Notes: generated from the sequence alone by a model not told the origin. A DNA stretch of 64,000 bases from Takakia lepidozioides (GCA_030704615.1 CM060734.1:23746001-23810000), one strand, 5' to 3'. Numbered from the stretch's first letter, positions 1 to 64,000 are shown. A program made the numbers and translations.

Positions 1-302
1 TTGCCTTGAGGGCAGGGGGTCGAGACACGAGAGGGGCTACCCTTGTGGTGGGGGTGGTGGCAACAATAGATGCGGGGGCTGAAGCACCCTTGAGTGCCCA
101 AAGCACCCTTGAGTGCCCAAGGCACTCAAGGAGGCGGAGGCGCTCACTAGGTGGAGCCCCGCACACCGGGTTGCGGTGGGGGTGGTTCCACGAGGGGTGG
201 TGGTAGTTTAGCGGGACTTAGTGGGGGTGGCATAGGACTCACCATCCTCCACCCTCAACTAGTGCAGAGTAAGACACAGACTCGGAGGCTTCATCAACAT
301 GT

Positions 303-1599
303 GTGCAGTTTCATTCGCCATTGTTGTGGGACGACATGGAGGAGATGTATGGAGCTATCAAGGGGCCTCGTAGGTACTCTGGAGCTATGGGCACAATTGA
401 GTTGGATGACTTTATCCAGGAGTTCGACAGCTGGTGTGATTTTGTAGCAGATGCACAATCCACAGCTGTTCACCCCATTCATGGCGTGGAAGGGACTGTT
501 CCAGCATTTGGAAGGCCCGCCTATGGACGATTACCACGAGTTCAGGCGAGGACATGAAGCAGAGATTGAGGAGTGGAGGATGTATTGGTCACCTGACTAC
601 GTCTCCATTACTCGAGGCACGACGCGACCAATAGCTGCATCAGCACTAATATCTCCCACTGCCAGCACTAGTAATGGAACAAGTAGTGCCGGTACTTCTG
701 CAGGTGGTACCAGTTCAAAAGGTGCTATTACTCCTCCTGCCACGACTACAACACATGTGCCTAGATTCAACCCGGTGGTGGAGTTCTTCCAGGAGTTGCG
801 GAGGAACTACCAAGGTGTACGGACAGAGAAGCTGCGAAGTTTGCAAGACTTCCAGCGCAAACCCAGTGAGAGCCTGCGAGAGGCGTACACTCGTATGAGG
901 CGCTTGATAAGTGTGATCCAAGGGGTTATTGAAGCTCAGGCAATCCAGTTCTGGTATGGAATTTTGGACAAGGAGCTCAGGAGAAGGGTGCAGGATGCAA
1001 CCCTGTTACAAGCAGCCCAACCCACATTAGCAGATGTGTTTCTGCTGGCTGAGCGGATTGAGCTCAACATGGTGGAGGAGCGAGTTGTTACCATTGGATT
1101 TGGCAAAGACATGCCTGTACGAGGCGCAGCTGCCAGCCCACAGGCACAAGGGACTGCCCAACAGCGTGGTCAAGGGGGCAAGGTTTCCCAACCCAAATTT
1201 CATGGAGCTTACAGGGGACCTCAGGTGCAGAGGCCAGTAGCATCTTTTGCAAGCCAACAGCAACCAGGGGTAATATGTTGGACATGTGGAGGACCCCATG
1301 TCAAGAGAGATTGCCCAGAGAGTGGCAAAAGGCCGGCACAAGCACAGCCTGCACAGTTGCAGTGTGGGCATTGTGGCAAGTATGGGCATGGAGATGCCCA
1401 GTGTTATGACTTGCATCCTGAGTTGCGCCCAGGCCAGTTCCAAGGGAACAATGGTGGCCGGGGGCAAGCTGGACCAGCCCAGAGAGGACGAGGTGGCCGG
1501 GCACGAGGTGCAGGCCAAGGGCAAGCTCAACATGGCCAAGGACGCGGAGGTCAGGGTGTTGACCAAGGCATGGCCAACCGGCTTCAGCAGCTAGAGTAG
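303..1599 (+). pseudogene. Retrotransposon Gag with two CCHC zinc knuckles and a Gly/Arg/Gln-rich tail
   Basis: ORFs 303..557 and 451..1599 are joined by a frameshift near 441. Knuckles are CWTCGGPHVKRDC and CGHCGKYGHGDAQC; there is a capsid-like segment QRKPSESLREAYTRMRRL. A near-identical protein is encoded at 15801-16788. Confidence 0.9.
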
Positions 1600-2313
1600 A
1601 GGCTCGCTGCCATGGCTACACCTCAGGTGGTACCGGCTCCCCGACGGGATGGTCCACCTCTTGCTCCTGAGGGAGGAGATATGGGAGGCATGGGATTCAT
1701 GTGCGGAACAACACTACCACTAGAGCAGGTGGAGTCTGTTGCAGCCGTGACTCGAGGAGCAGCACGAGTTCCTCAGCCACGAGGTGCAGAGGTGGAGTTG
1801 GATCCACAGCATGGGGAGGCAAGCCGTCAGGCGAGGCTTCCTCAGTCATTCACATTGGCGGAGACAGTGTCGACGCCATCCATGGCACCTAGTTCTTGCC
1901 CGACTGTTACCGAGGCGGAGGTTACTATGCCATTGGGGAGAGCTACACGTGCATCACTGACACCTGCTACCAATGCTAGTGCAGCCGGTGTGTTATTGGG
2001 GGCAGCCACCTCTGTGTGTCAAGCCCTACTGTTCTCGGCAACCATGATTGCGACGCCGGGGGTAAGACCAGCTGCAGTGTTCAGACTAGCAGCAACACTC
2101 TGTGAGAGTGGGGAGGTCACTTCATCTTCTGCGGAGTTACAGGAAGGTGTAGTGGCAGAGGGATTCTCGGATTTGAGGGTCAAGACTGCCACGGCTGTGC
2201 CATGGCAAGCTGCAACTGCCAGGTTGACGGAGCTGCCAGCTAGGCCAGTCTTTGAGCGCACCATGGTGACACCTGGAGTTGTCTTGTTAGACAACTAGGA
2301 TGACATTTTCTCT

Positions 2314-2760
2314 TTGAGTGGACCGGCAGGCAAGAAGTACCGGCCCCTGCGGGTCTTGTTGGACTCGGGAGCTCAGTCATTGATGTTGGGCAGAGTTGCT
2401 ATTGCAGGTTTGGGCCTCATGGAGGCGGATATGGAGCCTTGTCCTTTCCAGATACAGACATCTCTGGGAGGATCAGAGCAGGCTCGGGGCATGACACGGC
2501 GTGAGTTGGCCATTAGACTGCAGCTGGATCATCCTATAGATGGCTCAGTGATGCGAGCCAAGGCCATTGTGACAGACACGGTCTCTTACGATGTCCTCGT
2601 TGGTGGGGCAGTGTTATATCCCATGGGCTTCACCCTGGACTTTTGGGAGGTGTCATCATCCTACAGGCCTGGATGGCAGTCAGGGGATAGTCGTCATGCA
2701 CAGCTCCCTGCGACATTCATTGGGGGTATTGCGGCTGCCCAGCGGGGCAAGATGCCAACA
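2314..2760 (+). pseudogene. Retroviral-type aspartic protease domain
   Basis: RVLLDSGAQSLM active-site motif and a downstream YDVLVG motif, in the same frame as Gag. Confidence 0.85.
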
Positions 2761-3074
2761 CTAGCCGCCTTTACAGCTGCAGTTAGTTGGCCTGGAAGTT
2801 GCTGGAAGGCAATGCCCATGCAGAGGATGTGCCACCTTCAGCAGAGCATGATGACATGCATGGTACGGCAAAGTTGTCTGCCATGGTTGCTCACACTCCA
2901 TTGTGGGGTACGAGCAAGGATTTGCAGCAGGCTGCTGATGGACGGGTGCAACAAGCCTGGGTAGAGGCCTTCGTACCATCAGGAGAAGATGAGAGTGCGG
3001 TGATTGCACCAGGACCACCTCAGTTGTCGCCATTGGATACCACACCTCTTGTGTGGCAGTGCCCGGATGAAGGC

Positions 3075-4040
3075 ATATGCCTTCTGGACTTGTTTGGCGG
3101 GATCAGCACTGGATTGGCTGCAGTACTGCAGGCAGGTGTATGAGTTCGACGTTACCTGTATGTAGAGAGGGATGAGACTGCACGACGCGTCTCACTACGC
3201 CGTGTTGCTTAGTTGGTACAGCAGTACCCTGATTTGTTGCCAGTGTCTGCAGTTCGTGGATACCAACAAGTCTTGCCAGCAGACATTTCGTTGCTGGGGG
3301 CGCAGGATTTGGAGCAGGTTGGCTCCATTGATCTGGTAGTGGCAGGTTGGCCCTGCCAAGGGCATTCATCAGCCGGGCATGGCAATGGATTGCGAGACTC
3401 AAGGACGGGTCTGTTTTGGGAGATGAGACTCAAGGACGGGTCTGTGCGGGTTTTGCGCCACTTGCAGCTTCATCAAGCTGTATCTCCAGCATACATCTTG
3501 GAGAATGTGCCACTGATGGGTGATTCTCGGGCCAGGGTGATGGCCAGTGTGCATCAAGTCCGGTTGTGGCTTGGGTCAGCAGTGTTGCTAGATGCAGCTG
3601 CAGTGGGGTCACGAGCTCATCGTCCACGGCTATGGTGGACTAACTTGATGCCACCCGCATTGCTCAAGCGTGCATTTGATGGGGTGCAGCGGCCAGCACA
3701 CCTCACAGTGGATAGCATTTTGGACACAGGGAGGCACTCTCAACGTGTGAGACACGATGACCGTTTGCGTTTGGCAGTGGTCAACAAGGTGGGTCAACCA
3801 CGAGCAGCATTACCTACACTGCTCAGCTTCCCAGGATCCCATGCTTTTTGGGATGGTGGACCTGGCCTCTTCTGGGATAGCCAGTTGCAACAATTAGTGG
3901 AGCCCAATGCTGACGAGCGCGAGCGGGCAATGGGTTTTACCACTGGTACCACGGCGGTGCCATCTTTTTCTGAGGCATCACGTCGTCAGGTGTTGGGGCA
4001 AGCAATGGATCTCAATTGCTTGACCTGGATTATCAGCTTG
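3075..4040 (+). pseudogene. DNA (cytosine-5)-methyltransferase domain, DNMT3-like, embedded in the retrotransposon Pol
   Basis: Motif I LLDLFGGISTG, II YVERD, III ADIS, IV IDLVVAGWPCQGHSSAG (catalytic Cys codon 3354-3356), V DSRTGLFWE, VI YILENV, VIII AHRPRLWWTN, IX/X ERERAMGF...RRQVLGQAMD. Two in-frame stops at 3141 and 3210. Confidence 0.92.
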
Positions 4041-4293
4041 GCTATGGCTGAGCAGCGCAGAGTACGGAGTACACTTCCCTTCATGGTCTCCCTGCCTACC
4101 GAGACGGTACAGGCAGCGAGTGGGGGCGAGCAGGTGAGGACCACGAGGTGCAGGCTGCATCCATGGCACACGTGGGAGGTGCTCGAGGTTCAGAAGGAGT
4201 TGGCAGCCAAGACGGCGGTGATGGATCAGGTTGGGGATTTTTCTCGGGTTGAGGAGGTCCTCAAGGATGGGATGATGGGGCAGGATGAGACAC

Positions 4294-5280
4294 GATCCGG
4301 ATATCACCAGTTGCCGATCAAGGAGGTGGATAAGCAGAAGACGGCATTCTGGGGGATCAATGAGCACGGGAAGGATTGCCTTTACCAGTGGCGGTTCTTA
4401 CCATTTGGGCTTAAAAACGCTCCGACAGAGTTTCAGAGAGTCATGGACAGGATTCTAGCATGGGTGGAGTTTGCTCGGTGCTACATAGATGACATCATCA
4501 TCTTTAGTGCTACGGTGGAGGAGCATGAGAGACACCTTCAGGGGGTATTTGAGCGGTTGAGGGCGCACGGATTGAAGTTATATCCGGGAAAGTGCAAGTT
4601 TTTCCACAACCAGATTGAGTATCTGGGTCACATGATATATCCTGGAGGATTGGGGGTACAGCAGACTAAGGTAGAGTCCATTGCACAGATTCCATGCCCC
4701 ACGGATGTGAGCCGAGTTCGAGCTTTCATGGGGTTAGCAAACTATGATAGATGGTTTGTTAAGGGATTTAGTGCCATTGCAAAGGCTCTAACCAAACTGA
4801 CCAAGGTGGACCAGGAGTGGCAGTGGGAAGATGAGCAAGAACAAGCTTTTCAAGAGCTCAAGGCAAGGTTGACCTCGGCGCCCATCTTGAGACGACCTAT
4901 CAGGGGGCGTCCTTTTCAGCTGCATACGGATTGGAGCATGCTAGGGCTTGGAGCGGTGCTCACACAGGTGGATGATGAGAAAAGAGAGTTCGCAGTGGCT
5001 TATGCTAGCCGCTCGAACAATGCTACCGAGACTAAGTATAGCTCATATGAGGGAGAATGCTTAGCTGCAGTGTGGGCTGTGGCACACTTCAGGTGCTCTA
5101 TACGGCAATCTCTTCACCCTTGTCACGGATCACCAACCACTCAAGTGGTTGATGGAGTCAGACAAGCTTACGGGGAAGCTTGCACGGTGGGCACTCATCC
5201 TTCAAGAATATAACTTTCAGGTTGTGCATTGACCGGGTTTGGTCAATCGCAATGCAGATGGGTTGAGTCGCAATCCATGC
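4294..5280 (+). pseudogene. Reverse transcriptase (N-terminal part missing) and RNase H
   Basis: RSGYHQL...KTAF...PFGLKNAP...YIDDII...KC.FF...YLGH; TDWSMLGLGAVL, YASRS, SSYEGECLA. Frameshift near 5097, then TDHQPL.WL...ARWAL.LQ...NADGLSR. Confidence 0.92.
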
Positions 5281-5622
5281 ACGAGCCAGCAGGATGACAC
5301 TGGAGCTCGGTGGCATGGTGAGATGGACGAGGAGATGGTGCCCGGATGGCATGCATCTGCATTTCTGTGTATCTTGGCAGCGGAAGGCCAGGTTGGACCT
5401 GCAATAGGGATAACTGTAGATCAAGTGTCTGAGGACCCTGAGGCCAGCAATGAGCAAGGTGGCCCCAAAGATATACATGAGGATTCAGTTGTGTTGGACT
5501 ACCTCCGCACTGGAGACACTGCAGCCACTATGACTGCCAAGGAGAGGGATCGGATCCTACAACGAGCCAAGAGGTTCAAGTGGGAGGGGACACACCTGCT
5601 CCAAGTGTGGGAGGATGGTTGA

Positions 5623-6660
5623 GTGAGGATTATGCCTCACCCAACACAGCGGGCACGGTTAGTGCGACATGCCCATGAGGAGTTGGGGCATTTTGGGGTG
5701 CGACGCACTCATAGTCTACACGGGCAGTATTGGTGGCGTGGTATGCACACAGAGGTGCAACAATTTGTGGCTAGGTGCATGGTGTGTGACAGGGTGCGTG
5801 CTTCATTCAACGCCCCTACTCCACAATTGCACCCTCTTCCGATTATGGGATTGGGCTACAGGTGGAGTCTTGACTTCGCAGGGCCGTTGTCACTGACCAT
5901 GCGCCACAACAAGTACATATTGGTGATGGTGGAACACTTCTCCAAGTGGATCGAGTTGGTTCCATTGCCTGATAAGGCTAGTGAGGGAGCCGCGTATGCA
6001 TTCTTGGATTATGTACTTAGCCGATTCAGTGCTCCAGCTGAGGTACTCACGGACCAAGGGAGAGAGTTCTTGGGGGAGTTTCAGGCTTTGTGTGACAAGG
6101 CCTTGATAGACCACAGCACCACTTCTCGGGATCATCCTGAGGCCAATGGCTTGGCAGAGAGAGTTGTTCAGACAGTAAAGAGGGGTTTGCGCAAGTATGG
6201 CTTGCAGAAGGGACACCTAGGAGATTGGGACCTTCAGTTACCATGGTTAGCCATGGGCTACAGGTTCAGCAAGCAAGCATCATTTGCCTCCTTCTCACCA
6301 TACTTTCTTCTCTTTGGCCGAGAGCCGGATTTTCCTACATCCATTCGTAGAGAAGCTGCTACAATTCTTAACCTTGACGATCCGGACGTGTGGGCACGTG
6401 CATGTGAGCAGCGTGCAGAGTTGTTCAAGAAAGTCATGCCCATGGCTTTCGAGAACCTTGCCATTGCACAACATCATGATACGTTGAGGTATGCTACCAT
6501 ACGTGGTGGGGGTTATCGTCCTGGGGTTCGGAGATTCAACCCTGGTGACTATGTCTATCTGCAGCAGACTGCTCCTACGACCTTGGATGTGGCTGCAGGA
6601 CGTGTTATTTTGAGGGTTCGAGAGGTCTTGCCCTCAGGCGTCTTGATCTTGGAGGGTCGG
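5623..6660 (+). pseudogene. Retrotransposon integrase (HHCC zinc finger, DDE core, C-terminal SH3-like part)
   Basis: AHEELGHFG...CMVC; WSLDFAGP; VLTDQGREF; HPEANGLAER; SPYFLLFGR; RRFNPGDYVYL. Confidence 0.93.
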
Positions 6661-7507
6661 GCGAGCCTGGCAGTCCTGAAAAAGGGCAAAGAGGTCCATG
6701 GTGACATCATCAAAGCTGGAATTGGACCAGATGTCATTGCAAACAATACCCTGGTGGACATGTATGCCAAATGTGGCAGCATCGAAGCTGCGAAGGGAGG
6801 GTTTGACAACATGGCTGAACGAGATGTTGTATCATGGAACACGCTAATCACAGGATATGGCCAGCATGTGTGCAAGATGAGGGCATTGGAGACATATGAG
6901 CAAATGTCACGGGGAAGGGGTGCAGCCCGACCGGGTCACGTTCATTTGTGTTTGCAATGCATGTGCAAACCTAGAAGCCATGAAAACCTGGAGACCTGGT
7001 AAAGGGCAAAGAGATCCATCGTGACATCGTCAAAGCTGGAACTGTACCAGATGTCATTCTGAACAATACCCTCGTGGACATGTATGCCAAACATGGGAGC
7101 ATTGAAGATGCAAAGGGAGTGTTCAACAATATGGCTGAGCGAAATGTGGTGTCGTGGAACGTGATGATCGCAGGACATGCACAAAAAAGGGCGGGGATTG
7201 GAGGCTTTGGAGACCTATGAGCAAATGATGTGGGAGGGGGTGAAGCCCGACCACATTACGTTTGTTTGCGTTTGCAATGCATGCGAGCCTACTGGAGAAG
7301 GGCAAAGAGGTCCATGGTTGCATCGTCAAAGCTGGAATTGTGGCAGATGTCATTCTGAACAATACCCTTGTGGACATGTATGCCAAGCTTAAAGAGACAT
7401 TGGAGACATATTAGCAAATGTCGAGGAAGGGGTGCAGCCTAACCGGGTCACGTTCATTTGTGTTTGCAATGCATGTGCAAACCTGGCAGCCCTGGAAAAG
7501 GGCAAAG
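6661..7507 (+). pseudogene. Degenerate PLS-class PPR motifs (gene fragment)
   Basis: GKEVHGDIIKAG...NTLVDMYAKCGSIEAA...FDNMAERDVVSWNTLI.GY motifs, repeated with frameshifts. Confidence 0.9.
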
Positions 7508-7508
7508 G

Positions 7509-10500
7509 ATGGAGGAGCCCTGCTCAGCTGCACCGTGTTGGTTCTCACAGACCAATCCGACATTACCTGACTACAGACACAAGCAACACACACAAGAGGT
7601 CCTTCTGGGTTGATGGTCAGTCAAATCCTCCATGGGCCATGACACAAGGTCGAGGACAATGTGGTGAGGGCACCTTCTTCTTCAACCTATTTCAGCCTGT
7701 TTTTCCCTCTCATCAGACTCGGCCCTGAGACGCATATTGAATTTTGTAAGTTAGCTCGTTGGCTTCTGAAAGAGGATCAAGAGAGGGAGTCCATAATGCC
7801 TCTTCTGGCTCTTCTGGGCATGTGAATATGTTTTGTGAGGCAGGCAGACTGAAAGAGGCTCTACAGACTTTAACCAAGGAGCATTTCAGCAGATTCAGAT
7901 ATGTGTGTATGTCTCTTGCTTAAGTGCATCAAGATGAAAGGTCTGGAAGCTGGAAAGAAGGTGCACACCCACATTATCCAAAGTGGATTCACGCCAAGTG
8001 TTTTTCTCCTCAACACCCTTGTCAACATATATGTTAAGTGCGGGAGCATCATGAATGCTCACCGAGTGTTCAATGGAATGCCTCAACAATCTTTGATCAT
8101 GTGGAATACAATGTTGGCAGGATTTACAAAGCATGGGTGTGGTAGGAATGCTTTGGAGACATACGAGCGAATGCTGCGCGAAGTGGTGAAGCCCAACCAC
8201 ATCACGCGATCACATTTGTTTGTGTTTGCAATGTGTGTGCAAACCTGGGAGCCCTGGAAAAGGGGAAAGAGGTCCATAGTGAATCGTCAAAGCTGGAATT
8301 GTATCATATGTCATTCTGAGGACTGCCCTGGTGGACATGTATGCCAAATGTGGGTGCATCAAGGATGCAAAGGCAGTGGTCAACAATATGGCTGAATGAA
8401 ATGTTGTATCGTGGAGTGCAATAATTGCTGGATATGCACAGCAGGCTTTGGAGACCTATGAGCAAATGATGGGGGAAGGGGTGAAGCCCGGCCACATCAA
8501 GTTTGTGTGCATTTGTTGAGCAAGCCTGGCAGCCCTGGAGAAGGGCAAAGAGGTGCATGGGGATATCATCAAAGCTGGAATTGTACCAAATGTCATTCTG
8601 AACACTGCCCTGGCAGCTCTGGAAAAGGGGAAGGAGGTACATGGCGACATCTTCAGAGCTGGGATTTTACCAAATGTCATTCTAAACAAGACCCTGGTGG
8701 ACAAGTTTGCAAAATGTGGGTGCATCGAGGATGCAAAGGGAGTGTTCAACACTATGGCTGAACGAGATGTGGTGTCGTGGAGTGTGATGCTTGCAGGGTA
8801 TGCACAGCAGGATCACGTGGGATGGAGGCTTTGGAGACCTATGATCAGATGATGGGGGAAGGGGTGAAGCCTAGCCACATCATGTTTGTGTGCATTTGCA
8901 ATGCTTGAGCAAGCTTGGCAGCCCTGGAGAAGGGCAAAGAGGTGCATGGGGATATCATCCAAGCTGGAATTGTACCAAATGTCATTCTGAACACTGCCCT
9001 GGCAGCTCTGGAAAAGGGGAAAGAGGTACATGGCGACATCTTCAGAGCTGGAATTTTATCAAATGTCATTGTGAACAAGACCTTGGTGGACAGGTTTGCA
9101 AAATGTGGGTGCATTGAGGATGCATAGGGAGTGGTCAACACTATGGCTGAACGAGATGGGTGTCGTGGAGTGTGATGCTTGCAGGGTATGCACAGCAAGG
9201 ACGTGGGATGGAGGCTTTGGAGACCTATGATCATATGATGGGGGAAGGGGTGAAGCCTGGCCACATCATGTTTGTGTGCATTTGCAATGCTTGAAGCAAG
9301 CCTAGCAGCCCTGGAGAAGGGCAAAGAGGTGCATGGGGATATCATCAAAGCTGGAATTGTACCAAATGTCATTCTGAACACTGTCCTGGCAGCTCTGGAA
9401 AAGGGGAAAGAGGTACATGGCGACATCTTCAGAGCTGGAATTTTACCAAATGTCATTCTGAACAAGACCCTGGTGGACAGGTTTGCAAAATGTGGGTGCA
9501 TCGAGGATGCAAAGGGAGTGTTCATGACACTCTGGCTGAACGAGATAGAGTGTCATGGAGTGTGATGCTTGCAGGGTATGCAGAGCAGGGACGTGGGATG
9601 GAGGCTTTGGAGACCTATGATCAGATGATGGGGGAAGGGGTGAGGCCTGGCCACATCATGTTTGTGTGCATTTGCAATGCTTGAGCAAGCTTGGCAGCCC
9701 TGGAGAAGGGCAAAGAGGTGCATGGGGATATCATCAAAGCTGGAATTGTACCAAATGTCATTCTGAACACTGCCCTGGCAGGTCTGGAAAAAGGGAAAGA
9801 GGTACATGGCGACATCTTCAGAGCTGGAATTTTACCAAATGTCATTGTGAACAAGACCCTGGTTGACAGGTTTGCAAAATGTGGGTGCATCGAGGATGCA
9901 AAGGGAGTGTTCAACACTATGGCTGAACGAGATGTGGTGTCGTGGAGTGTGATGCTTGCAGTATATGCACAGCAGGGACGTGGGATGGAGGCTTTGGAGA
10001 CCTATGAGCGAATGATGGGGAAAGCACATCATGTTTATGTGCATTTGCAATGCTTGTGCAAGCTTGGCAGCCCTGGAGAAGGGCAAAGAGGTGCATGGGG
10101 ATATCATCAAAGCTGGAAATGTACCAGATGTCAATCTGAACACTACCCTGGCAGCTCTGGAAAAGGGGAAAGAGGTGCATGGCGTCATCTTCAGAGCTGG
10201 AATTGTACTAGATGTCATTCTGAACAATACCCTGGTGGACATGTTTGCAAAATGTGGGTGCATCTAGGATGCAAAGGGAGTGTTCGACATTATGGCTGAA
10301 CGAGATGTGGGGTCTTGGAGTGCGATGCTTGTAGGGTATGCACAGCAGGGACGTGGCATGGAGGCTTTGGAGACCTATGAGCAAATGATGGGGGAGGTAC
10401 AACACGTTTGTGTGCATTTGCAATGCTTGTGCAAGCCTGGCAGCCCTGGAGAAGGGCAAAAGAGGTGCATGGGGATATCATCAAAGCTGGAATTGTACCA

Positions 10501-12127
10501 AATGTCAATTGTGAACACTACCCTGGCAGCTCTGGAAAAGGGAAAGAGGTCCATGGCGACATCTTCAGAGAATTGTACCAGATTCATTTTATGAACAAGA
10601 CCCGGGTGGCCATGTTTGCAAAATGTGGGTGCATATAGGATGCAAAGGGGAGTGTTCGACACTATGGCTGAACGAGATGTGGTGTCGTGGGGTGCGATGC
10701 TTGCAGGGACGTGGGATGGAGGCTTTGAAGACCTATGAGCCAATGATGGGGGAAGCACATCATGTTTGTGTGCATTTGTAATGCTTGTGCAGCCTGGCAG
10801 CCCTGGAGAAGGGCAAAGAGGTGCATGGGGATATCATCAAAGCTGGAATGGTACAAAATGTCAATTTGAGCACTGCCTTGGCAGCTCTGGAAAAGGGGAA
10901 AAGAGGTGCATGGGCGACATCTTCAGAGCTGGAATTGTACCAGATGTCATTCTGAACAAGACCCTGGTGGACATGTTTTCAAAATGTGGGTGCATCTAGG
11001 ATGCAAAGGGAGTGTTCAACACTATGGCTGAACGAGATTTGGTGTCGTGGAGTGCGATGCTTACAGGGTATGCACAGCAGGGACATGGGATAGAGGCTTT
11101 AGAGACCTATGAGCAATTGATGTGCGACGGGGTGAAGCCCGACCACATCATGTTTGTGCGCGTTTGCAGTGCGTGTGCAAGCCTGGCAGCCCTGGAAAAG
11201 GGCGAAGAGGTGCGTGGCGACATCGTCAGAGCTGGAATTGTACCAGATGTGATCCTGAACACTGCCCTGGTGGACATGTATGCCAAATGTGGGTGCATGG
11301 AGGATGCAAAGGAGTGTTTCGACAATATGGCTGAACGAGATGTGGTGTCATGGAATGCAATGATCGCAGGATATGCACAACATGGTTGTCATAGGGAGGT
11401 CGTGCAACTATTTGAAGGAATGCAAAAGAACGGCTTGAAGCCGAGCAATATCACCTTTATATGTGTTCTCTCTGCATGCAGCCACGCTAGTCTACTGAAT
11501 GAAGGAAGACGCTACTTTGATTCCCTGAGTCAAGATCATGGTGTTACTCCGACAGTAAAGCACTTTGGCTGCATGGTGGACCTTCTTGGACGTGAGGGAC
11601 AACCCGATGAGGCAGTGGACAGGATTAATAAAATGCCCATAAATCCAGGTGCTGTGGTGTGGAAGGCCTTGCTTGGTGCCTGCAGAATCCATGGCAATGT
11701 GGAGATGGCTGAACGTGCAGCAACATCTATCCTCATGTGGGCTGAACAGGATGCCGCGACTTATGTGTTCCTCTCAAACATCTATGTTGCAGCTGGCAGG
11801 TGGGATGATACTGCAAAGGTGAGAAGAATGATGAAGGTCAAAGGGGTTAGAAATGAGCCAGGTCGCTGCTGCATTGAGGTTGGCAACATGGTGCACACCT
11901 TCGTTGTAGATGACAAGTTGCATCCCAGAATTATGGAAATCCATGCTGAGTTGAGAAGATTGGCTGGGAAGATGAAGGAGGTGGGGTATGTGCCTGATAG
12001 GCGCTTTGTATTGCATGATGTGGGGGAGGAGGAAAAGGAATTTTCTCTTTGCCACCACAGTGAGAAGCTGGCCTTGATTTTGGCATATCCACGGGAAATG
12101 ATAGTGGGGTCTACCCAACATAGGTGA
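7509..12127 (+). pseudogene. PLS-class PPR-E-DYW RNA-editing factor pseudogene with truncated DYW domain
   Basis: N-terminal motif HVNMFCEAGRLKEAL (~7819-7863), then many frameshifted P/L/S motifs. ORF 11012..12127 has P2-L2-S2, E1/E2 (WKALLGACRIHG, YVFLSNIY), a PG box (EPGRCCIEV...HTF) and GYVPD...HHSEKLA, but lacks CxxCH and the terminal DYW. Confidence 0.9.
8521..11177 (+). repeat. Seven tandem copies of a ~360-390 bp PPR-coding unit
   Basis: Unit starts (caagc[c/t]tggcagccctggagaaggg) at ~8521, 8910, 9297, 9686, 10059, 10432 and 10790. Confidence 0.9.
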
Positions 12128-15570: not shown

Positions 15571-16800
15571 CTTGTGGCTGGAAATGTAAGCCTTAGGGGA
15601 TTTCAGGAAGCTGGGCAAAGGCTGTGTGGAAGTGCTTAGGTCCTTGTGTTAGGAGAGCATCAAGGAGCCCACGGGAGCCAAGGGTTAAGGGTGATATTAC
15701 CTCTTGTGTGATCTTCCTCATGACGCATCTGAGGTCCTCTTTGTCCTTCCCTGGGCTTCACATGAGCCCCTTCGTTGCCTTGAGCACGTTGGGGTAGTGG
15801 TTAGCTAGGAGCAACCACTACCCGTGGTGTATCCTTAGTAAATCCCACCATGACCACTCGTTCCTCCACCATGTTGAGCTCTATCCGCTTTGCCAGCAAA
15901 AACACATTTGCTAAGGTGGGTTGGGCCGCTTGTAAGAGAGTTGCATCCCGCACCCTTCTCTTCAGCTCCTTGTCCAATATCCCATACCAGAATTGGACTG
16001 CCTGAGCTTCCGTAACCCCTTGGGTTACATTTATCAAGCGCCTCATGTGAGTGAAAGCCTCCCTCAAGCTCTCAGTCGGCTTCCGTTGGAACTCTTGCAA
16101 GCTCCGCAACTTCTCTGTCCTCACCCCTTGGAGTTCCCTCTCAACTCTTCGAAGAACTCCACAACAGGGTTGAAGGCAGGCACGGGTACTGGTGCTGGTG
16201 CGGCAGTGGCTTGGTTGGATGTCGTAGCTATGGTACCACTAGTCCCACTAGTCCCACTACTGCTTGTTGAAGCTGCCGGTGCAGCTGCAGGTGTAGCCAC
16301 TGCCCTCGTGGCTCTAGTGCCCCTAGTGATGGAGACATAGTCAGGTGACCAGTACATCCTCCACTCCTCGATCTCAACCTCATGCCCCTACATGAACTCA
16401 TGGTAATCATCCATGGGCGGCCCCTCAAGGTGCTGAAACAGCCCCTTCCATGCCATGAAAGACGTAAATAGTTGTGGATTGCGCATTTGCTGCAAATCAC
16501 ACCAACTATAAAACTCTGGATAAATCAATCCAGCTCAATGGTGCCCACTGCTCCAGAGTACCTACGTGGCCCCTTGGTAGCTCCATACATCTCCTCCATT
16601 GTATCCCACAACAATGGCAAGGAAGTAACTTGCACCGTCGGCTTGAACCCTCCTGATTTAGAGTCTGAATCAAAACCTTCCTTGGAAGACACAGGAGGTG
16701 AAGGTGGCCTAAACCGCACACCTCGTCTTGTGTACCCACTAGTATCGCTAGTGCTCGAACCGGCACTCTCCCCAGCAACTAGTGGCACCTCCGTGTTGAC
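15571..16800 (-). mobile_element. Second, truncated gag copy of the same Gypsy family
   Basis: Minus-strand ORFs 16525..16788, 16121..16357 and 15801..16124 give PLLWD.MEEMYGA.KGPRRYSG, MYWSPDYVSITRGT and RTEKLRSLQ.FQRKP, nearly identical to 303-1599. Confidence 0.92.
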
Positions 16801-17427: not shown

Positions 17428-18078
17428 TTAATCTTCTTGGTCATCAATGCTTGAGACTGAAACGTCCTTAGGAACAAGCTTATTGGCAAGTCTGGTTTCA
17501 TTTACAGCCTTGGTTGAGATCTTGTCCGTGAATTTTGTTAGCACTTCATCAAACTCATTGTTACAACATACCTCCATGAGGTTTTCTTTGTGAGATGCCA
17601 TCAATGCTTGCTCACACTTCCTGCTGCACTTCCCTTCAGAGTGTCCAAGATCCCTGCAATTTCCACAACAGAATTCCTTTGCTGCTGTCCCATACCCCGG
17701 ATTGTGACATCTGTCATATCTGATCATGCCTTCTTCCATAGGGCAGAACGCCGCCATGTGTCCTTCTTGTTGGCAAAACTTGCACAACTTGACAACCCGT
17801 GGTGGGATTTTGCTAGCTGAAGCCTCATCAATCATTGGGCCCTTACTGAAGAACCTCTGCGTAGTATCCTTCAATGGGTCACGGTGCTTGGCCATACAAT
17901 CCATGAATGTGTCTCCTCTACATCATTTCTCCCAAGTAGTTCCTGAGGGTTTCCTTTCAGCATACCCAAGGCTCGTTCAGCCTGGATTGCACTCTCCAAA
18001 GCTTTCTTCATATCTCGAATCGGCAGTCCCATCATGGCCTCATAATCTTAGGGCGCATCCCCTTTACAAACCTCTATA
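17428..18078 (-). pseudogene. Different Gag-like fragment with two CCHC knuckles
   Basis: CKFCQQEGHMAAFC and CGNCRDLGHSEGKC. The frameshifted upstream sequence reads RFVKGM...PIRDMKKALESAIQAER, resembling a capsid C-terminal region. Confidence 0.65.
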
Positions 18079-21502: not shown

Positions 21503-24400
21503 ATACCATGTGACAGGTCCAGGACAAGTATATAATGAATCAAAATTGATTGAAAGGGCAAACGAATGGTTGCCCATCCAAATGAATTTTTGTTGTTTTC
21601 AAGCTTTTCTAGCATGTTAAATATACCATGTGACAGGTCTTGGACAAGTATGGCATGAATCAAAACTGATTAAAAGAGCAAACAAATGGTTTCCCATCCA
21701 ACTAATTTTGTTTTTTTTCAAATTTTGCCAGCATGTTCTCCATACCCTCGAACAGGTCCTGGACAAATGTGGGATCAATCGAAATTCTACAAAAAAGCAA
21801 ACAAATTTTTTCCCCATCCAAATGATTTTTGTTTCTTTTCAAAGTTTGTCAGCATGTTCTCTATACCCTCAAATAGGTCCACGACAAGTAGGGGATCAAT
21901 CGAAATTCATTAAAAGGACAAACGATTGGTTGCCCATCCAAATGATTTTTGTTTCTTTTGAAACTTTGCCAGCATGTTGTACATACCTTCAAACAAGTCT
22001 TGGACGAATATAGGATCAATCAAAATTCATTTAAAAAACAAAAACATATGGTTTCCCATCCAAATGATTTTTATTTTTTGTCAAACTTTGCCAGCATGTT
22101 CTACATATCATCCGACATGTCCTGGACTAATATGAGATCAATTGAAATTGATTCAAAGGGTCAACAAATGGTTACTCATGCGATTGATTTTTATTTATTT
22201 TCAAACTTTGCTAGCATGTTGTACATACCCTCAAACAGGTCCTGGACAAATATGGGATCAATCAAAATTCATTAAAATGGCGAAATGGTTCCCAAACCAA
22301 ATGATTTTTTGTGTTTTTGTTTCGGACTTTGGCAACATGTTCTACATACCATCCGACAGGTCCTGGACCAATATGAGATCAATCCAAATTGATCTAAAGG
22401 GCGAACAAATGGTTGCCCATCCAGATGATTTGTGTTTCTTTTACAACTTTGTCAACATGTTCTACATACCATTCGACATGTCCTCCACTAATATGAGATC
22501 AATCGAAATTGGATGAACGGGCCAACGAATGGTTGCCCATCCAAATGTTTTTTGTTTCTTTTGATGGTTCCCAACCCAATTGATTTTTGTTTGTTTTTTA
22601 ACTTTGCCAGCCTGTTCAATAATCATCCGATGTCCTAGACAAATATGAGATCAATCCAAATTGATTCAAAGGGCGAACAAATGGTTGCCTATCCAAACAA
22701 TTTTTGTTTATTTTCAAACTTTGTCAGCATGTTCTACGTAGCATTTGACAGGTCTTTGACTAATATGAGATCGAAATTGGATGAATGGGCCAACGAATGG
22801 TTGCCCATCCAAATGATTTTTGTTTCTTTTGAAACTTTGCCAACATGTTTTACATACCCTCAAAAAGGTCCTGGACAAGTATGGGATCAATCGAAATTCA
22901 TTAAAATGGCGAAAGTATGGTTCCCTATCCAAATATTTTTGTTTATTTTTGAAACTTGGCACGCATGTTCTACATACCATCCGATTCATACTTTGCCAGT
23001 ATGTTCTTCTTCCGACACGTCCTGAAGAAGTATGGCATGTATCGAAATTGATTGAAAGGGCCAACAAATGGTTGTCCATACAGAAGAGTTTTGTTTTTTT
23101 TCAAAACTTTGCGAGTATGTTCTACACACCATTCGACAGGTGATCGGACTAATATGAGATCAATCGAAATTGATTGAAAGGGCCAACGAATGGTTGCCCA
23201 TCCAAATGATTTTTTTTTTTTTTCGAACTTTGCCAGTATGTTCTATGTTCCATCCGAGAGGTCCTAGATAAATATGAGATCAATTGAAATTGACTGAAAG
23301 GGCAAACAAATGGTTGCCCATCCAAATGATTTTTTTTCATCTTTCAGACTTTGCTAGCATGTTCTATATAACATCCGACAGGTCCTGGACTAATCGAAAT
23401 TGATTGAAAAGATGAACAAATGGTTGCCCATCGAATGATTCTTTTCTTTCAAACTTTGCTCGTATGTTGTATATACCATCCGACAAGTCCTAGACAAATA
23501 GGAGATCAATCGAAATTGATTGAAAGGGCCAAGACAACCAACATGTAGCCTAGTGGTAATGGGCACATACCACGTTTGATGTGGTTGTGGGTTCAAACCA
23601 CGGTCTGGTGTGTCATGAAGGTGTCCACCTTTAAGCTGGAAGACAATAGTCCTTATGGTGAAGAGACACCATAAATTACGCTCCCTTCGGGAGGCGTCAA
23701 ACTCTTTGAAAGGGCCAACAAATGGTTGCCCATCCAGATGATTTTTGTTTCTTTTCATACTTTGCCCGGATGTTCATCTGATACATGCTGGACAAATATA
23801 AGATCAAACGAAATTGATTGAAAAGGGCAACGAATGGTTGCATACCCAAATGATTTTTGTTTGTTTTCAAACTTTGCCAGCATGTTCAACATACCCTCTG
23901 GCTGGTCCTAGACAAATAGGAAATCAAACCCACCCAAATAATTTTTGTTTGTTTTCAAACTTCGCTAGCATGTTCAACATACCCTCTATCTGGTCCTATA
24001 CAAATAGGAGATCAAACGAAATTGATTGAAAGGGCAAAGAAATGGTTGCCCACCCAAATATATATTTTTTGTTTTCAAACTTCGCTAGCATGTTCAACAT
24101 ACCCTCTGGCTGGTCCTGGACAAATATGAGATCAAACGAAATTGGTGAAAGGGCAAACAAATGGTTGCCCATCCAAATGATTTCTGTTTGTTTTCAAACT
24201 TTGCCAAAATGTTGTACACACCATCTGACAAGCCCTGAACAAGTATGGGATAAATTGAAACTGATTAAAAGGGTGAACAAATGGTTCCCCATTGAATTTT
24301 TTATTTTTTATTTTTTATTTTTTTCAAACTTTGCCAACGTGTTCTTCATACCCTCTGACAAGTCGTGGACAAGTATGGGATAAATCGAATTGATCAAAAA
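21503..24400. repeat. Degenerate ~120-bp tandem satellite, over 20 copies
   Basis: Recurring unit ...caggtcctggacaa.tatg.gatcaatcgaaattgattgaaagggc.aacgaatggttgcccatccaaatgatttt...aactttgccagcatgtt... Confidence 0.93.
23533..23705 (+). mobile_element. tRNA-derived SINE inserted in the satellite
   Basis: Pol III A box TAGCCTAGTGG and B box GGTTCAAACC. A 13-bp TSD TTGAAAGGGCCAA lies at 23520-23532 and 23706-23718. Confidence 0.88.
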
Positions 24401-27326: not shown

Positions 27327-28888
27327 TCACCTGGTTGCTTCTGCTTTCGGGTTTGCCTTTTGCTGTAATGATGCCACATACTGATCGCTAGTCATCAGTA
27401 TAGATTTGCTAGGCTCTTCTGAAGAGTTCTTCTGAATCCTGGTATGAGGCACCTCTGGTAGTGTTAGAAATTGGTGTATGTACCTGCATTGAGCATTGGA
27501 CATGTCAGACTGACGTGGCAACTCATGTGGCTCAGATGTTATGATGCTCGTCGGCTCATTTTGTGGAGTTGTGATCTCAGATCTGGAGATGCAGCCCTCG
27601 ACCTCGACGTAATATTGACAAGCATCTAGTTGTACATCAGGTATACTATCCCCTGACACCTCTTCAATGTGCAGATCTTGATCACATTCAGCCTGATGGT
27701 CTTGTTCCTGTGAAAAACCTTCGCTTGGTTGCATTTTAGAATCCATAGCATTGGGATTTAATGGCCAAATGCCAGTAGTTTCAAATCCCTTGCGGATATT
27801 GTGTGGTGTCAATGCTTTCTTGAGGGCCAAAGACATCCATTGAGCCAGATCCTCATTTTTTGCACTCTTTTCCTTGTTTGCCAAGGTCCAAACATCCCTG
27901 TAAGCTCTAAAAGCTGTTTGGATGGGCTGAAACATGACACATCTAACAGTTGCAATGTGTGGCTTGTATGTGAGGGCAGAGTAAGCAAATCCAAGCCTGC
28001 AGCTCGTGCTTGATGCACAACCTCAAGAGTAACATGCGAATTGTGGCCATCCAATACGAGTAAGTGTCGATTCATGGTTGATAGGTTACCTCCTTTTGCT
28101 TGCACATAGGCAATAAAATATGAGATCCATTTTGAGAATAGCACAGCAGTCATCCAAGCTTTAGGCTGCATGGCCATAGTGGCACCGTTCTCACAGCGCT
28201 CGATGTAATTGCGTTTGAATTTCTTACCTCTAAAAATGTAAAAGTTTGGAATGGACTCACCATGTGCATAGATGCAGGATAGTACAGACAGCCACTCCCT
28301 CTCATCAGGTGTGATTGAATGCACAGTCTCGGACCCGACTTTGGCGATCACTCGAGCTCCTCCATTTCTACCAGCCTGAGCGCCAGATTCGTCGCAATTC
28401 CAGATACGTTGTGGCTCGTAATCGTGTGTAGTGTAGGCCTCCTTCAAGTTTGAGTAGAATGTAGCAACATTTGCAGGGCATAATCCCTTGGCACGCCCTA
28501 CCTCAAGGCCTTGAGCTACTCGAAGAGAAAACTCTAGATGACGCCGCTTAAACCATCTGATCCAGCCCCAACCTGGAATCCCATTTTTGAATGGAGTAAC
28601 CCGTTCTTGCGTAATCTCAGCAACCTTGAGCCTCAACTGTGACAAGGTAAGTGGGTGTCCAATTTCCTGCATCTTCTTGATGTAGTTTACGAGAGCATTT
28701 TCTTCCGCTGTTTGTAATACACCCAATTTTCCTCTACGCCTTGTGGTTGTGATTCCATATAGATGATTCCGGAGTATGGTTACGGGGATGTCAAAATATC
28801 TGCTTGCTGTAAGGATCTTAGATCCTCTCTCCACTGCATCCATTGCCCTCTGCAGGTTGGCATCAGTCCAGTTGCCATTCTTTCTCAA
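27327..28888 (-). mobile_element. pogo-superfamily (Tc1/mariner-related) DD35D transposase, frameshifted
   Basis: N-terminal psq-type HTH (WTDANLQRAM...FDIP..ILR), CENP-B-type HTH (GWGWIRWFKRRH), IWNCDESG, and LLVLDGHNSH...LQLLD with 35 residues between the 2nd and 3rd Asp. Continues after a frameshift near 27930 into ORF 27327..27935 (GFETTGIWPLNP). TIRs not found. Confidence 0.92.
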
Positions 28889-30049
28889 ATTTTTTTTTTC
28901 TGCCTGCTGCGTTGGTTTCGTGTGTCAGTTGCAGGTGGATTTAACTTATCCTCTATTCCACTGTGGTCTGTCTCCCTTGCAGTTAAGTCCTCCAGATGCG
29001 CATCTGACCTCAACAGAGGGTCTCTACGAGTAGGTCGATTGATGAACGGTTGGTGCTCAAGTGACGATTGGGATCGACTTGCTCCAGGACGATTCAATGC
29101 TGGCCCTCATAGCTCCCTCGTATTGGCTGTGATCGTTCAGCACTGCATTGCAAATTGTGGGTGATGAAATCAATGTCGTGGGGTTCTTGGGGTGGGTGCG
29201 ATCTTACTTCTGTATGTTGGGTGTGCTCCCTGTTGCGAGGCCCGTTTGCCTGCGTGTGTGCAACTTGAGCGTACTGTTGGGTGTGCTCCCTGTTGCGGGC
29301 TCCGTTTGCTTGCGTGCGTGCAACTTGAGCGTACTGGAGCTCCTGCAAAATTTCACTATCCGGTGGATTTCCTTGTGCCCATTGAAAATCAAAAGCATCT
29401 GTGTCTGATTCCTCACAGGTGCAGTGTACTTCACCGCTCTTCTGTTCACTGCCTCTGTCACTCTCTAGAATTTGAACTCCAGCATCACTCTCTAGAATCT
29501 GGTCTCCTCCTTTTACTGAATCAGGAAGGAGCCTTCACATTTGGCTAAGTCTGAGATCTTCCTCCATTGTCCAAAGTCTTCACTAATCACAAGACTAATC
29601 ATAAGACTAATCAGACTCTTCAGTACTCAGATCACGAGACTCTTCACTAATCAGGAGACTAATCAACCTCTTCACTAATCAGACTCTTTCAAGATACTCT
29701 TCACTAATCTCCTGAAAAATGAAACTGGTCATCTACATTGGCCACCTTAAACTATTGATCAACTTGATATGGCATAGTGACGAGTTAGTGTGGGCCCCAT
29801 TTGCTTGTTATCATCTCAAGATCAAGGACTGCCACTTTTAGATGCAAAAGTAGGTATCCATTTAAGGGAAGTGTCCATTTAAGGTTCATCTACCTTAGGG
29901 ATGATGATCTTCGGCTTCTGATCATAACTCTCTTGAGAGGGGTCAATATAGTGATTTTGATGAGGACAATAAATAGGAGTTGGAGGTTGATGAGGAAGAT
30001 GATGGCCCTCCCGATGACATCATGTAAGTACCCACGCGACACATTGCTA

Positions 30050-43100: not shown

Positions 43101-46100
43101 TCTGGATCATTAAGTTTCAGCACTGCTCATAAAAACTCGGGGGGTTTCTTCACCTATTAAAATGCGCATAGATTTCAGCAAACCATTGCTTGTTTGTGCT
43201 GTTGATTGTCAAGTGCTTGGAGCAATGTCGAGTCCTCTTCCGCAATCGATTAAGGTTGTGGATAACCTTGCTTGTGTTTAGAATTGATTCTTGCTTTAGA
43301 ACTCATGTTGTACAGCGATAACAAGCGTGAGACCCGATTCACCTGGGGTTCCACAATTCTCACTAACCTGTTGGTTCTTGTGGGGGCTTGTGATGGGACC
43401 AGGTGAGGGTCCTCACTTAATGTGATTTTTTGAAGCTTGAATCTGATGACAAACCTGCAAGTGAAGTGACATCGACATCAGCTGATTATCCAGGGAGATG
43501 TCTCATTTTTGCCTCCCTACCTTGACCAATCTGGATATGCTTACAACCTTTATCTTTATGTTGAAGCAGCAAGTGCATTAGCGAGCCTTTTTAGAATTCT
43601 ATTAAGGACTCTGGGTTATGATTTCCGCTGCATTGAAATATGGTACTGGATGTAGGGTTTCCAAACCAAATATATGCTCTTTTTTCATGCTTAGAGCACG
43701 ATTTGCTACTCTGATATGTACACTTTCAAGCAACACGGTAGGGGAGAGGCCAGAGCTTGCATCTGGTTTATACTAAGCCTTGTATGCCTTTATGTGCTCA
43801 ATCTATGGAACCTCTGTGGCTTTCTGAACCCCCTTTCCTTTTTTACCTTGCATACAATCTGCTAAGGTAAGTAACCTGCTACCTCTTCATGTCACTCTGT
43901 AATTACAGATTGTATACAGTTGTGTTTGTGGCTTTTGGGTTACAATAAAAGAACACAGGACTCATTGTTTCTGCTCCACAAGAAACATGGAATGGTGGGG
44001 ACCCAGAATTACTCTTCTAAAAGCAAGCTTTTGTTTTTTTAGAAAAACATGTACTAGCTTTATAGACTCTTGGTAGGTTGGATTGAAGATATCAGCTGTT
44101 CTGATATCTGGCAACACAACCTTTTTTTCAGATGTTATGACTTCAAAACCTGTGTAACATTGGGGTTTGAACATGTATTGGCACTATAGCCTTTCTGAAC
44201 TTCATTAAAATGTCTTTTTTACCTTGCAAACACCTTGTTAACAAAATCTCTAAAAGTTACCTTTTTAATGGATGTTATCCATTGACGAGTGCATCTCCTG
44301 CTAGAATGCGACTTTTTCATCCCCCCTGGATGAGAAATCGGGGATATGTGCCCTAAGCAGGTCGACACCTTTCACAGCACACAGCTCGTGCTTCAGGGAT
44401 CCTTGATGATGCGCCGTGTAAATCTGCTCCCCAGTTGCTGCATGGTACCCGTGATGGCTGGCTCTTGGGATGCGCATTGGCGGTTATGCAGATTCTTCTC
44501 TGGCAGGTGACAAAGCGATGATTGCTTTGCTCAGACCCTCGTGGTTCTTTCTAATTGCAGCGTTACTCCTCGTTGGGAAGTACTCTAACCCTATTTATCT
44601 ACAGATTACATATGGCTCTTTCACTTTGTATGAGCTCTTTTCTATCTGTGAACCCTTCTACTGTGATTGTGTTCTGTTGGAGACGATCTGTTGGATGCCA
44701 TGGCGCAGGGCATACCGCAAACACTCGAGGTCTTTTGAGGTTACCCTTGCTTGGATTGTGATCTGTACATGCTTTAGAATTCAGCACTGACATGGATAGC
44801 AACTGTGAAGACATGCCACTCACCCGATGCATCCTCACTAACACACATCTTTATGTGGTGGTTTTTGGGACGGGCACAGGTGAGGGTCTTCACTTGTCTT
44901 GAATTCTTGAAGCTTGCAGAGTCTGATTCTTGCATAAGGGATTGCTCCTACCGCTTGAAGCTGCTGATGCCAGTTGCTGTTTCAAATCTGCCACCTTGTT
45001 GCCTCAAAACGGCTTCAAGTCTGCTCTAATGAGGATCGCCTTCTTACACCTTACCCTTGTTTTTGGTTCTTGATGACCACTTCTACATGTTTTGGAGTTA
45101 AGACACACAAGGGACTTCATAGAAAACAAAATCTCTACTGAAGGCTCTGGCTGTTTTCAACAAAGGTATAGGGCTGCAGCTACAACTATGGCTGCATGGA
45201 AACTAGGCTCTGAAATGAAACATCATGGCCTGGCCTTGATGGATCAGGAGATAGACCTTGTCTGATGACAAACATTCTTCAAGGCTCTCATATCACTGTG
45301 ATTTCATTGCATGATAGGGGACAGGGGTTTATGAGTTCATTTCTTTAACTGGCAGAGCTTTTTATGAGGCCCTGGAATACCACTCCAGGCCCATATCTGC
45401 TTGAGGGTACTCAGCCATGTGTTTTTCTGTTGTTAGAAGTCTTGCCTATGACTTGGCACCGAAGCACCTTCGGACATGGGCCCATCATAATTTTGATTTT
45501 CAAGACCTGCTTGCTGGTAGGTGTTGTGTGCTTCTTACCTTCTACCCTGGCAGAGTTTTGATCATGAAGTCCTGGAATTCCATTCCAGACCTGCAGCTCC
45601 TTACAAAGACTCAAATAAGCCATGTCATTGCATGTAATGCTTGCTCATTCATTTGCAATGCTATGATACCTTCAGGCTGGCTGTTTTTTTTAGGAAGGCG
45701 ACTTATTCAAAAATTGGATTCTAAAACAGTAACCTTTATGGTCCAGCAAGTAGCCTAGCATGACAGTTTTAAATACTTTTTCATGGCCTAAACCTGGTCG
45801 TGATACACCTTGCTAGGTGTAGAGATATTCTTACTTAGATAAAACTAAGCAAGAAAGACACTTGTTGCTTGAAGGGCTTGGTTCTGGAGATTATCTCCAG
45901 ACCTGCAATCTGGTTTCTGAAATGAAGGTGCAATCTGCAAGTATAGGGGAATTTTTCATTAAACCATGGTGCTTTCATGATATGATTGACCTGGAATTCT
46001 GAGTTATTTATTTTTTACCCTAGCAGAGCTGTTTATGAGGCCCTGGAATACCAATCCAGGCCTGCATATGCCTGAAAAAACTCAGCCCCGTTTCTACTTT

Positions 46101-63978: not shown

Positions 63979-64000
63979 CGTCGATGTTTCCCAGCTCACC

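Follow-up and report, generated by a model that had tools for sequence, protein, structure and literature searches.

A 64,000-nucleotide stretch of the Takakia lepidozioides genome (GCA_030704615.1 CM060734.1:23746001-23810000; hereafter the window, meaning the whole stretch) opens with a Ty3/Gypsy retrotransposon copy. The coding part of this copy (337-6661, plus strand) comprises a gag with zinc knuckles, a protease, a DNMT3-like cytosine methyltransferase (DNMT), a reverse transcriptase (RT), an RNase H and an integrase. The domain order Gag-protease-RT-RNase H-integrase of Ty3/Gypsy elements was recovered by a Pfam scan, in which gag and protease fell below the cut-off and are supported by matches to Marchantia proteins. 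The window copy is dead, since it carries six stops (at 1597, 2296, 3141, 3210, 5230 and 5620) and three frame breaks (near 445, 2796 and 5096) and is truncated at 6661, and it matters only as a pointer to its family. Comparison with its relatives shows that a first open reading frame (ORF1) encodes Gag, protease and DNMT and ends at a conserved stop. It further suggests that this stop is likely read through, that the DNMT would be packaged at the level of Gag, and that it would likely methylate the element's own cDNA.

The methyltransferase domain and its fusion to reverse transcriptase

As a first-pass annotation of this DNA had proposed, the DNMT domain lies between protease and RT, in a single frame and without introns, and its motifs follow the canonical, unpermuted order. 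These are DLFGG (3087), GWPCQ (3345), ENV (3501), AHRPR (3615) and ERERAMG (3915), which we take to be motifs I, IV, VI, VIII and IX-X. The catalytic PCQ, ENV and RxR residues described there as intact are indeed retained, and the domain is interrupted by the stops at 3141 and 3210 and by a short duplication near 3426. Among 228 near-full DNMT stretches of the family, decayed copies included, the CQ motif is found in 193, EN[VT] in 202 and HRxR in 199. The profile search suggested at the outset gave a PF00145 score of 36.3 bits against a cut-off of 22, and the DNMT3-like identity was confirmed by sequence matches in the PDB, 27 of 29 of which are DNMT3A/B/C (best match DNMT3A, E 3e-7). A structure model of the DNMT from an open-frame relative, metagenome locus L021 (pLDDT 78, pTM 0.82), matched DNMT3A/B/C folds in all 33 entries listed (TM 0.63-0.67), at an identity to DNMT3A of only about 20%. 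The permuted plant methyltransferase DRM was ruled out for the window domain because the motif order is canonical and not circularly permuted.

The annotation had further placed the DNMT inside Pol, in an ORF at 3213-5213 shared with RT. This ORF does contain motifs IV onward together with RT sequence, but motif I lies upstream of the in-frame stops at 3141 and 3210. The shared frame itself appears from sequence comparison to be a lesion of the window copy, or of its assembly, and not the layout of the family. The window RT covers Pfam positions 76-205 and lacks its first third, whereas that of L021 covers 7-205. Two contigs that are 96-98% like the window (run X7 record 21 and run X9 record 25) carry an extra 561 and 562 bases at 4281-4291, with 563 letters against the window's 2 and 573 against 11. 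In addition, protein P0316, which is 92.9% identical over 255 residues to window 3516-4280, ends two residues past 4280; this implies an ORF1 tail of 75 residues, and Marchantia ORF1 tails measure 73-75 residues. The extra contig bases, the missing RT N-terminus and the end of P0316 together indicate that the fusion resulted when 561-562 bases were lost. Among the contig pieces listed (most are not shown), none spans the fused junction, which leaves room for a mis-assembly. That the fusion is instead a genuine single-ORF variant, like the algal elements, strikes us as very improbable. Such protease-DNMT-RT elements exist (P0075, P0246, P0450, Closterium P0141, and the distant relatives L046 and L047 at 31% identity), but an RT without its first third, the additional bases in closely similar contigs, and the stops and frame breaks elsewhere in the window copy contradict this explanation.

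A conserved stop in relatives of the element

The family DNMT was found in 51 metagenome loci, 29 of which span both the end of the DNMT and the start of RT. A stop lies 57 or 78 bases 5' of the N-terminal block of RT in 27 of these 29 loci, L046 and L047 being open. It divides Gag-protease-DNMT (ORF1) from RT-RNase H-integrase-PHD (ORF2) within the same frame, so that in the family the DNMT ends ORF1 and the placement inside Pol does not hold. Locus L021 illustrates this arrangement with 1369 codons, a stop and 1047 further codons in one frame, and in 16 of the 27 loci the in-frame linker is open apart from the junction stop. Correspondingly, 22 of 27 proteins with a protease and a whole DNMT end 71-164 residues past the DNMT, without RT.

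The junction stop is TAG in 20 loci and TAA in seven. The six bases behind it read CAACCC in 18 loci, CAACTA, CAGTTA and CAATCA in two each, and CAACCA, CAACCT and TAACCC in one each; CAR-YY thus follows the stop in 26 of 27 loci and the full CAR-YYA in seven. By comparison, CAR-YY follows 9 of 265 decay stops, and in three loci 77 of 6353 codon positions begin with it. The second codon after the stop encodes Pro, Leu or Ser depending on the subfamily, and CAR-YY is kept even though synonymous sites are near saturation. CAR YYA after UAG is the readthrough signal of tobacco mosaic virus, UAA in this context is also read through, and rice gypsy elements include candidate readthrough cases (PMC2754532; this and the other publications are cited from their accessible parts). 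A stable fold 3' of the junction stop was absent in five of six loci (z -1.0 to 0.1), with one locus at -3.2. Our literature search found no account of bryophyte copies or of the junction stop, with subscription journals and two supplement sets beyond reach.

Every search for relatives was seeded with the DNMT, so copies without one would be missed. The long relatives comprise 60 proteins of 768-2190 residues, of which 16 are named as Marchantia polymorpha and one as Sphagnum fallax; M. polymorpha relatives are 54-73% identical to the window DNMT (rows covering at least half of the query). Shorter matches add Calypogeia, Riccia, M. paleacea and three further Sphagnum species. A search of cluster representatives returned 170 matches at E 1e-30 or better, and those named include Klebsormidium, Closterium, Scenedesmus and Cymbomonas. 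No hornwort, fern, lycophyte, Physcomitrium or seed plant is named among the matches listed (60 plus 120 of 639). Two matches labelled as bacteria (P0273 and P0423) are presumably mislabelled metagenome bins, and viral contigs yielded only 31 phage-type methylase loci at 28-51% identity over short stretches. The suspicion that the domain belongs to a transposable element family was correct, in that the Marchantia, Riccia, Calypogeia and Sphagnum relatives carry it at a fixed place. The comparisons support the view that the DNMT is a family trait of land-plant Gypsy elements and not a one-off insertion, a local capture or a contaminant.

Two layouts can be distinguished. The order protease-DNMT-RT is found in bryophytes and Closterium, and the order zinc knuckle-protease-DNMT is seen in Klebsormidium GAQ93235.1 (partial) and Closterium GJP34393.1. 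The second layout, RNase H-DNMT-integrase-PHD, is found in Scenedesmus and many further rows. It characterizes a Gypsy clade made up of P0036-P0057, P0088, P0058, P0154 and loci L041, L042 and L045, in which the chlorophytes Scenedesmus and Monoraphidium are named, and the accessible parts of the literature consulted contained no description of it. As a separate observation, the same 133 bases inside the integrase stand at both ends of the L046 contig (1-133 and 11941-12073), suggesting a circle or a tandem array.

The first-pass annotation had suggested phylogenies against algal element DNMTs. Our RT tree holds 72 rows with a midpoint root, and the DNMT tree 48 rows, 44 of them chosen element rows, with phage-type methylases as outgroup and host DNMT3 not among the rows; near-duplicates within clusters and stretches shorter than 230-270 residues were omitted. 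All 44 element DNMTs group against the phage methylases (100/100). The window DNMT and all four named bryophyte rows form a 100/100 clade, and the window RT likewise falls into a bryophyte clade (0.986); Klebsormidium is not placed as the sister group in the DNMT tree. All rows with the DNMT before RT form one clade in the RT tree (0.96), while in the DNMT tree the second layout and Cymbomonas form a 100/93 clade in which Cymbomonas is the basal branch. The single-ORF forms occupy deeper branches of the RT tree, which suggests that the stop was gained once. The bryophyte elements probably continue, in land plants, the Gypsy-DNMT3 lineage of Klebsormidium and Closterium and acquired their stop later.

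The DNMT has a Ka/Ks of 0.07-0.23 in 18 of 36 pairs, and the family DNMT is thus under purifying selection. A sister clade (L021, L023, L028, L043 and proteins P0015-P0031) at about 50% DNMT identity stands out by its open frames and by the best CAR-YYA contexts.

The termini we describe belong to a sister subfamily, not to that of the window copy, and there the repeats are split rather than plain long terminal repeats (LTRs). In L030 the order is A-internal-B-A-B, where A measures 339 bases and starts with TG, B measures 113 bases and ends with CA, and the flanks carry a 4-base duplication. All four relatives with both ends (L030, L013, L022 and L040) show 4-base target duplications, a TG start and a CA end. 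L013 and L040 have the form A-internal-B only, which may reflect recombination between B copies or assembly collapse, and the split arrangement is partial in L022/L024. Split ends would presumably escape LTR-finding programs. The inner B-A junction of L030 (10340-10355) reads CA, two bases, TG, like joined cDNA ends. A DIRS retrotransposon was ruled out by the rve integrase of the window copy and the 4-base duplications of its relatives, as DIRS elements use a tyrosine recombinase and make no duplication.

Element remnants and host DNA in the window

The coordinates of the element features are collected in Table 1. In relatives the left end of the element lies about 1.6 kb upstream of gag; the window contains neither the 3' end nor either terminus of its own copy. 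Window gag is 40-71% identical to the N-termini of Marchantia proteins, and the RT/RNase H region matches PF00078 (E 2e-25), PF17919 (E 5e-30) and PF17917. At 6661 the integrase is cut and decayed PPR sequence begins; the PHD finger that follows the integrase in L021 (Pfam scan) is missing here, and contigs of runs X5 and X9 continue beyond this point with different letters. Within the 64 kb we found no match to an LTR or to the A/B repeats and, by tblastn, no second DNMT. The minus-strand gag-only fragment is accompanied by a TGTCACG at 18428 (minus strand), 1.8 kb upstream, which may be its left end, and by a 164-codon Cys/His-rich ORF between the two (17428-17922, minus strand).

Table 1. 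Element-derived features of the window
Feature	Position	Strand	Evidence
Likely 5' untranslated part; left terminus outside window	1-336	+	Contigs of all 4 runs cover stretch
gag with zinc knuckles; frame break near 445, stop at 1597	337-1596	+	PF03732 E 0.0036, below cut-off
gag-protease linker; stop at 2296	1600-2295	+	35-46% identity to equivalent Marchantia stretch
Aspartic protease (LLDSGA)	2299-2700	+	PF13975/PF13650 weak, below cut-off; 40-58% identity to Marchantia relatives
Protease-DNMT linker; frame break near 2796	2701-3071	+	Contig comparison; Marchantia matches
DNMT3-like C5 cytosine methyltransferase domain	3072-4061	+	PF00145, PDB matches, motifs
ORF1 tail behind DNMT, 73 codons present	4062-4280	+	End of protein P0316; Marchantia tails
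Site of 561-562 base loss (ORF1/ORF2 junction and RT start gone)	4281-4291	+	Contigs of runs X7, X9
RT (truncated; YIDD present) and RNase H; frame break near 5096, stops 5230, 5620	4292-5622	+	
Integrase (H2C2 zinc finger, rve core), cut at 6661	5623-6661	+	PF17921, PF00665
Second, gag-only fragment, related subfamily	15825-16618	-	77% nucleotide identity to 317-1101; tblastn gag match

The flanking genes had been read as those of a land plant, and this reading stands. A decayed PPR-E-E+-DYW gene (6661-12127, plus strand) directly abuts the cut integrase; it holds many shuffled repeat pieces, and very many contigs fit it. At the other end of the window an intronless 502-codon ORF (62491-63999, minus strand) encodes a bHLH protein related to MpBHLH20, whose best named matches come from mosses and liverworts. 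A tree of 24 rows places it with the mosses (SH-aLRT 99), where it branches outside both Sphagnum and a Physcomitrium/Ceratodon group (support 80). A position outside Sphagnum and the other sampled mosses is where we would expect Takakia. Between these genes lie what we take to be a decayed pogo/CENP-B-type DDE transposase (27327-28924, minus strand) and, presumably, the decayed integrase tail, RT and RNase H of a Copia element (57232-58951, plus strand). Two sets of near-identical ORFs, one at 44455, 48124 and 52111 and the other at 45405 and 51168, whose later members are inverted, mark a local multi-kilobase duplication (44455-52506). The window also contains an AT-rich degenerate repeat array (21600-24400) and a run of about 500 N (56147-56660).

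Proposed role of the methyltransferase and known systems

Since the conserved stop lies between DNMT and RT, we infer that the methyltransferase is made at the level of Gag and Pol by readthrough. The full-length RNA would yield a bulk Gag-protease-DNMT protein and a rarer readthrough product that adds RT, RNase H, integrase and PHD. Most ribosomes would probably stop past the DNMT, with a few percent reading through the UAG into Pol. The DNMT would be packaged along with Gag, and the delivery of a methyltransferase into the particle, which the first-pass annotation had envisaged, is plausible and is strengthened by the predicted Gag-level expression. The protease might then free the DNMT inside the particle and the enzyme might methylate new double-stranded cDNA before integration, a step to which we give somewhat less than an even chance; the integrase would insert the cDNA with a 4-base duplication. 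It is conceivable, if rather doubtful, that the element benefits because new copies are already methylated and silent on arrival, the PHD finger guiding integration through histone marks. A wider history can be sketched only tentatively and is a possibility we would not favor as a whole: an old green-plant lineage of DNMT3-Gypsy elements persisting in mosses and liverworts might have gained a leaky UAG-CAR-YY, carry its DNMT at capsid level with cDNA methylated before integration, be hidden by its split repeats, and have a chlorophyte branch with the order RNase H-DNMT-integrase.

Several observations weigh against this account. The commonest stop context, found in one subfamily (18 of 27 loci), is CAA-CCC, with C and not A as the sixth base, and most members of this peat-moss-type subfamily have an ATG three codons past the stop. 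At least six pairs among the 27 loci seem to be a single insertion sampled twice, which leaves four or five diverged subfamilies to carry the weight of the stop evidence. For the window's own subfamily, whose stop site is deleted in the window copy, only the end of P0316 marks the place of the stop. The Marchantia gene models P0006 and P0014 fuse DNMT and RT and skip the linker. Full split repeats occur in one of the four copies with both ends, and the deep DNMT branching gives no clear order, with Klebsormidium not placed as sister. Six within-subfamily pairs of decayed copies have a DNMT Ka/Ks of 0.35-0.67 (RT 0.29-0.43 in the same pairs), and 12 of the 36 pairs are saturated. The element has an observed-to-expected CpG ratio of 0.48, against 0.44 for the remainder of the window, so that self-methylation has left no footprint there. 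Finally, the DNMT of KnitGypsy-Dnmt3, an element of the alga Klebsormidium nitens, gave no methylation in yeast, though the authors regard that outcome as inconclusive (PMC5890265).

ORF2 could alternatively be reached by splicing, re-initiation or a promoter of its own. We consider this unlikely, yet it deserves more weight than any other rival reading. The two Marchantia models that join DNMT to RT and the ATG of the peat-moss-type subfamily would fit such routes, and in Candida Tca2, which has an in-frame stop, readthrough was tested and de novo expression of pol discussed (PMC2194720). However, P0006 and P0014 are predictions on decayed copies, and L007, L013, L021, L023, L028, L034, L035 and L043 have no ATG at that place. 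In 16 of 27 loci a single stop interrupts a linker whose two sides are otherwise open and in the same frame; this and the near-universal CAR-YY likewise speak against these routes and for readthrough.

A second question is where the enzyme acts. That it works chiefly in the nucleus and in trans, with host DNA or further element copies as its targets, is only slightly less probable than the splicing or re-initiation of ORF2. Gag-level output would far exceed the need of one cDNA, and DNMTs from Symbiodinium elements add de novo CG methylation to the genome of yeast; fusion to Gag-protease, on the other hand, should mean packaging, and the Klebsormidium methylome is ordinary despite its elements (both results from PMC5890265). 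Retention of the domain as a DNA-binding or structural part, with weak or irrelevant catalysis, would agree with the inactivity of the Klebsormidium domain in yeast (PMC5890265) and with the faster divergence of DNMT (Ka 0.161) than of RT (0.071) and integrase (0.027) between L021 and L028. We nevertheless hold it to be improbable in view of how often the CQ, EN[VT] and HRxR motifs are retained. We also regard it as very improbable that a host DNMT3 was captured in a single event, or that the scaffold is a contaminant or a chimera. Neither the boundary at 6661 nor the site of the loss is spanned by any of the contig pieces listed (most are not shown), and the DNMT tree lacks host sequences, which leaves some scope for a chimera or a capture. 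Against them, two divisions of bryophytes and algae of two classes share the domain at the same place, and the L021 DNMT is only about 20% identical to DNMT3A. Contigs of two of the four runs cover all 30 bins of 1-9000, and up to 86 contigs of one run fall on a single DNMT position; we do not take contig depth as copy number or expression. This coverage shows the family to be repetitive in the DNA of the organism and makes contamination an unlikely explanation.

Our findings extend the published KnitGypsy-Dnmt3 kind of element to land plants. New are the land-plant range, the derived stop between DNMT and RT, and the chlorophyte layout, in which the DNMT follows RNase H. The role played by retrotransposon-borne DNMTs has been in question since 2018, and the hosts known so far lend themselves poorly to experiments. 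As a genetic model that holds long Gag-protease-DNMT proteins, Marchantia makes the question testable in a land plant. The conserved stop would also tie the enzyme to the output of Gag, not of Pol. Element copies can moreover be miscounted as host DNA methyltransferase genes, and several database entries are so named.

Among known systems, KnitGypsy-Dnmt3 is the closest. It is a Gypsy element with an intronless, unpermuted DNMT3-like domain under purifying selection, and according to a figure legend its repeat structure is that of DIRS elements, resembling the split repeats of L030 (de Mendoza et al. 2018, PMC5890265). K. nitens GAQ93235.1, with the order zinc knuckle-protease-DNMT, is 38% identical to the window domain and probably belongs to KnitGypsy-Dnmt3. 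The algal element encodes its DNMT in one ORF with RT and RNase H (PMC5890265), whereas the bryophyte copies reside in land plants and show, in 27 of 29 loci, a stop ahead of RT, and we therefore regard them as a variant of that kind; being in one frame, their readthrough product would again contain both DNMT and RT. A recent preprint names Gypsy-DNMT3 as a known streptophyte class, and its main text mentions no land plant, moss or Marchantia element and no readthrough; the EpiLTR DNMTs it describes are DNMT4-related and paired with an adenine methylase and a chromodomain, unlike the bryophyte family (bioRxiv 10.64898/2026.05.21.726589). The accessible parts of four further papers (PMC11982613, PMC8616336, PMC11244446 and PMC10952607) contain nothing on element-borne DNMTs in bryophytes. 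SymbioDIRS-Dnmt3 and SymbioLINE-Dnmt also carry a cytosine methyltransferase, which in the DIRS version methylates CG de novo in yeast (PMC5890265), but they are independent captures by tyrosine recombinase or LINE elements, while the bryophyte family has a DDE integrase and 4-base target duplications.

Chlamydomonas REM1 and Gypsy-7a_cRei share the PHD finger in the polyprotein (PMC9940879, PMC6673714); no DNMT is reported for them in the text available, whereas chlorophyte relatives of our family (Scenedesmus) carry one between RNase H and integrase. The plant Ty3/gypsy lineages of REXdb (Phygy, Selgy, Tcn1) have the same Gag-PROT-RT-RH-INT order, and some groups split Gag-PROT off in two ORFs, but the accessible description includes no PHD or methyltransferase domain and does not mention Marchantia (PMC6317226). 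For the stop itself the nearest parallels are tobacco mosaic virus, soybean SIRE1 and murine leukemia virus (MuLV) gag-pol, which among them offer an in-frame UAG, a CAR-YY(A) context, and an abundant upstream and a rare downstream product (PMC2754532, PMC2194720, PMC2829016). In contrast to these systems, the stop of the bryophyte elements, at which readthrough is predicted, sits between a methyltransferase and RT.

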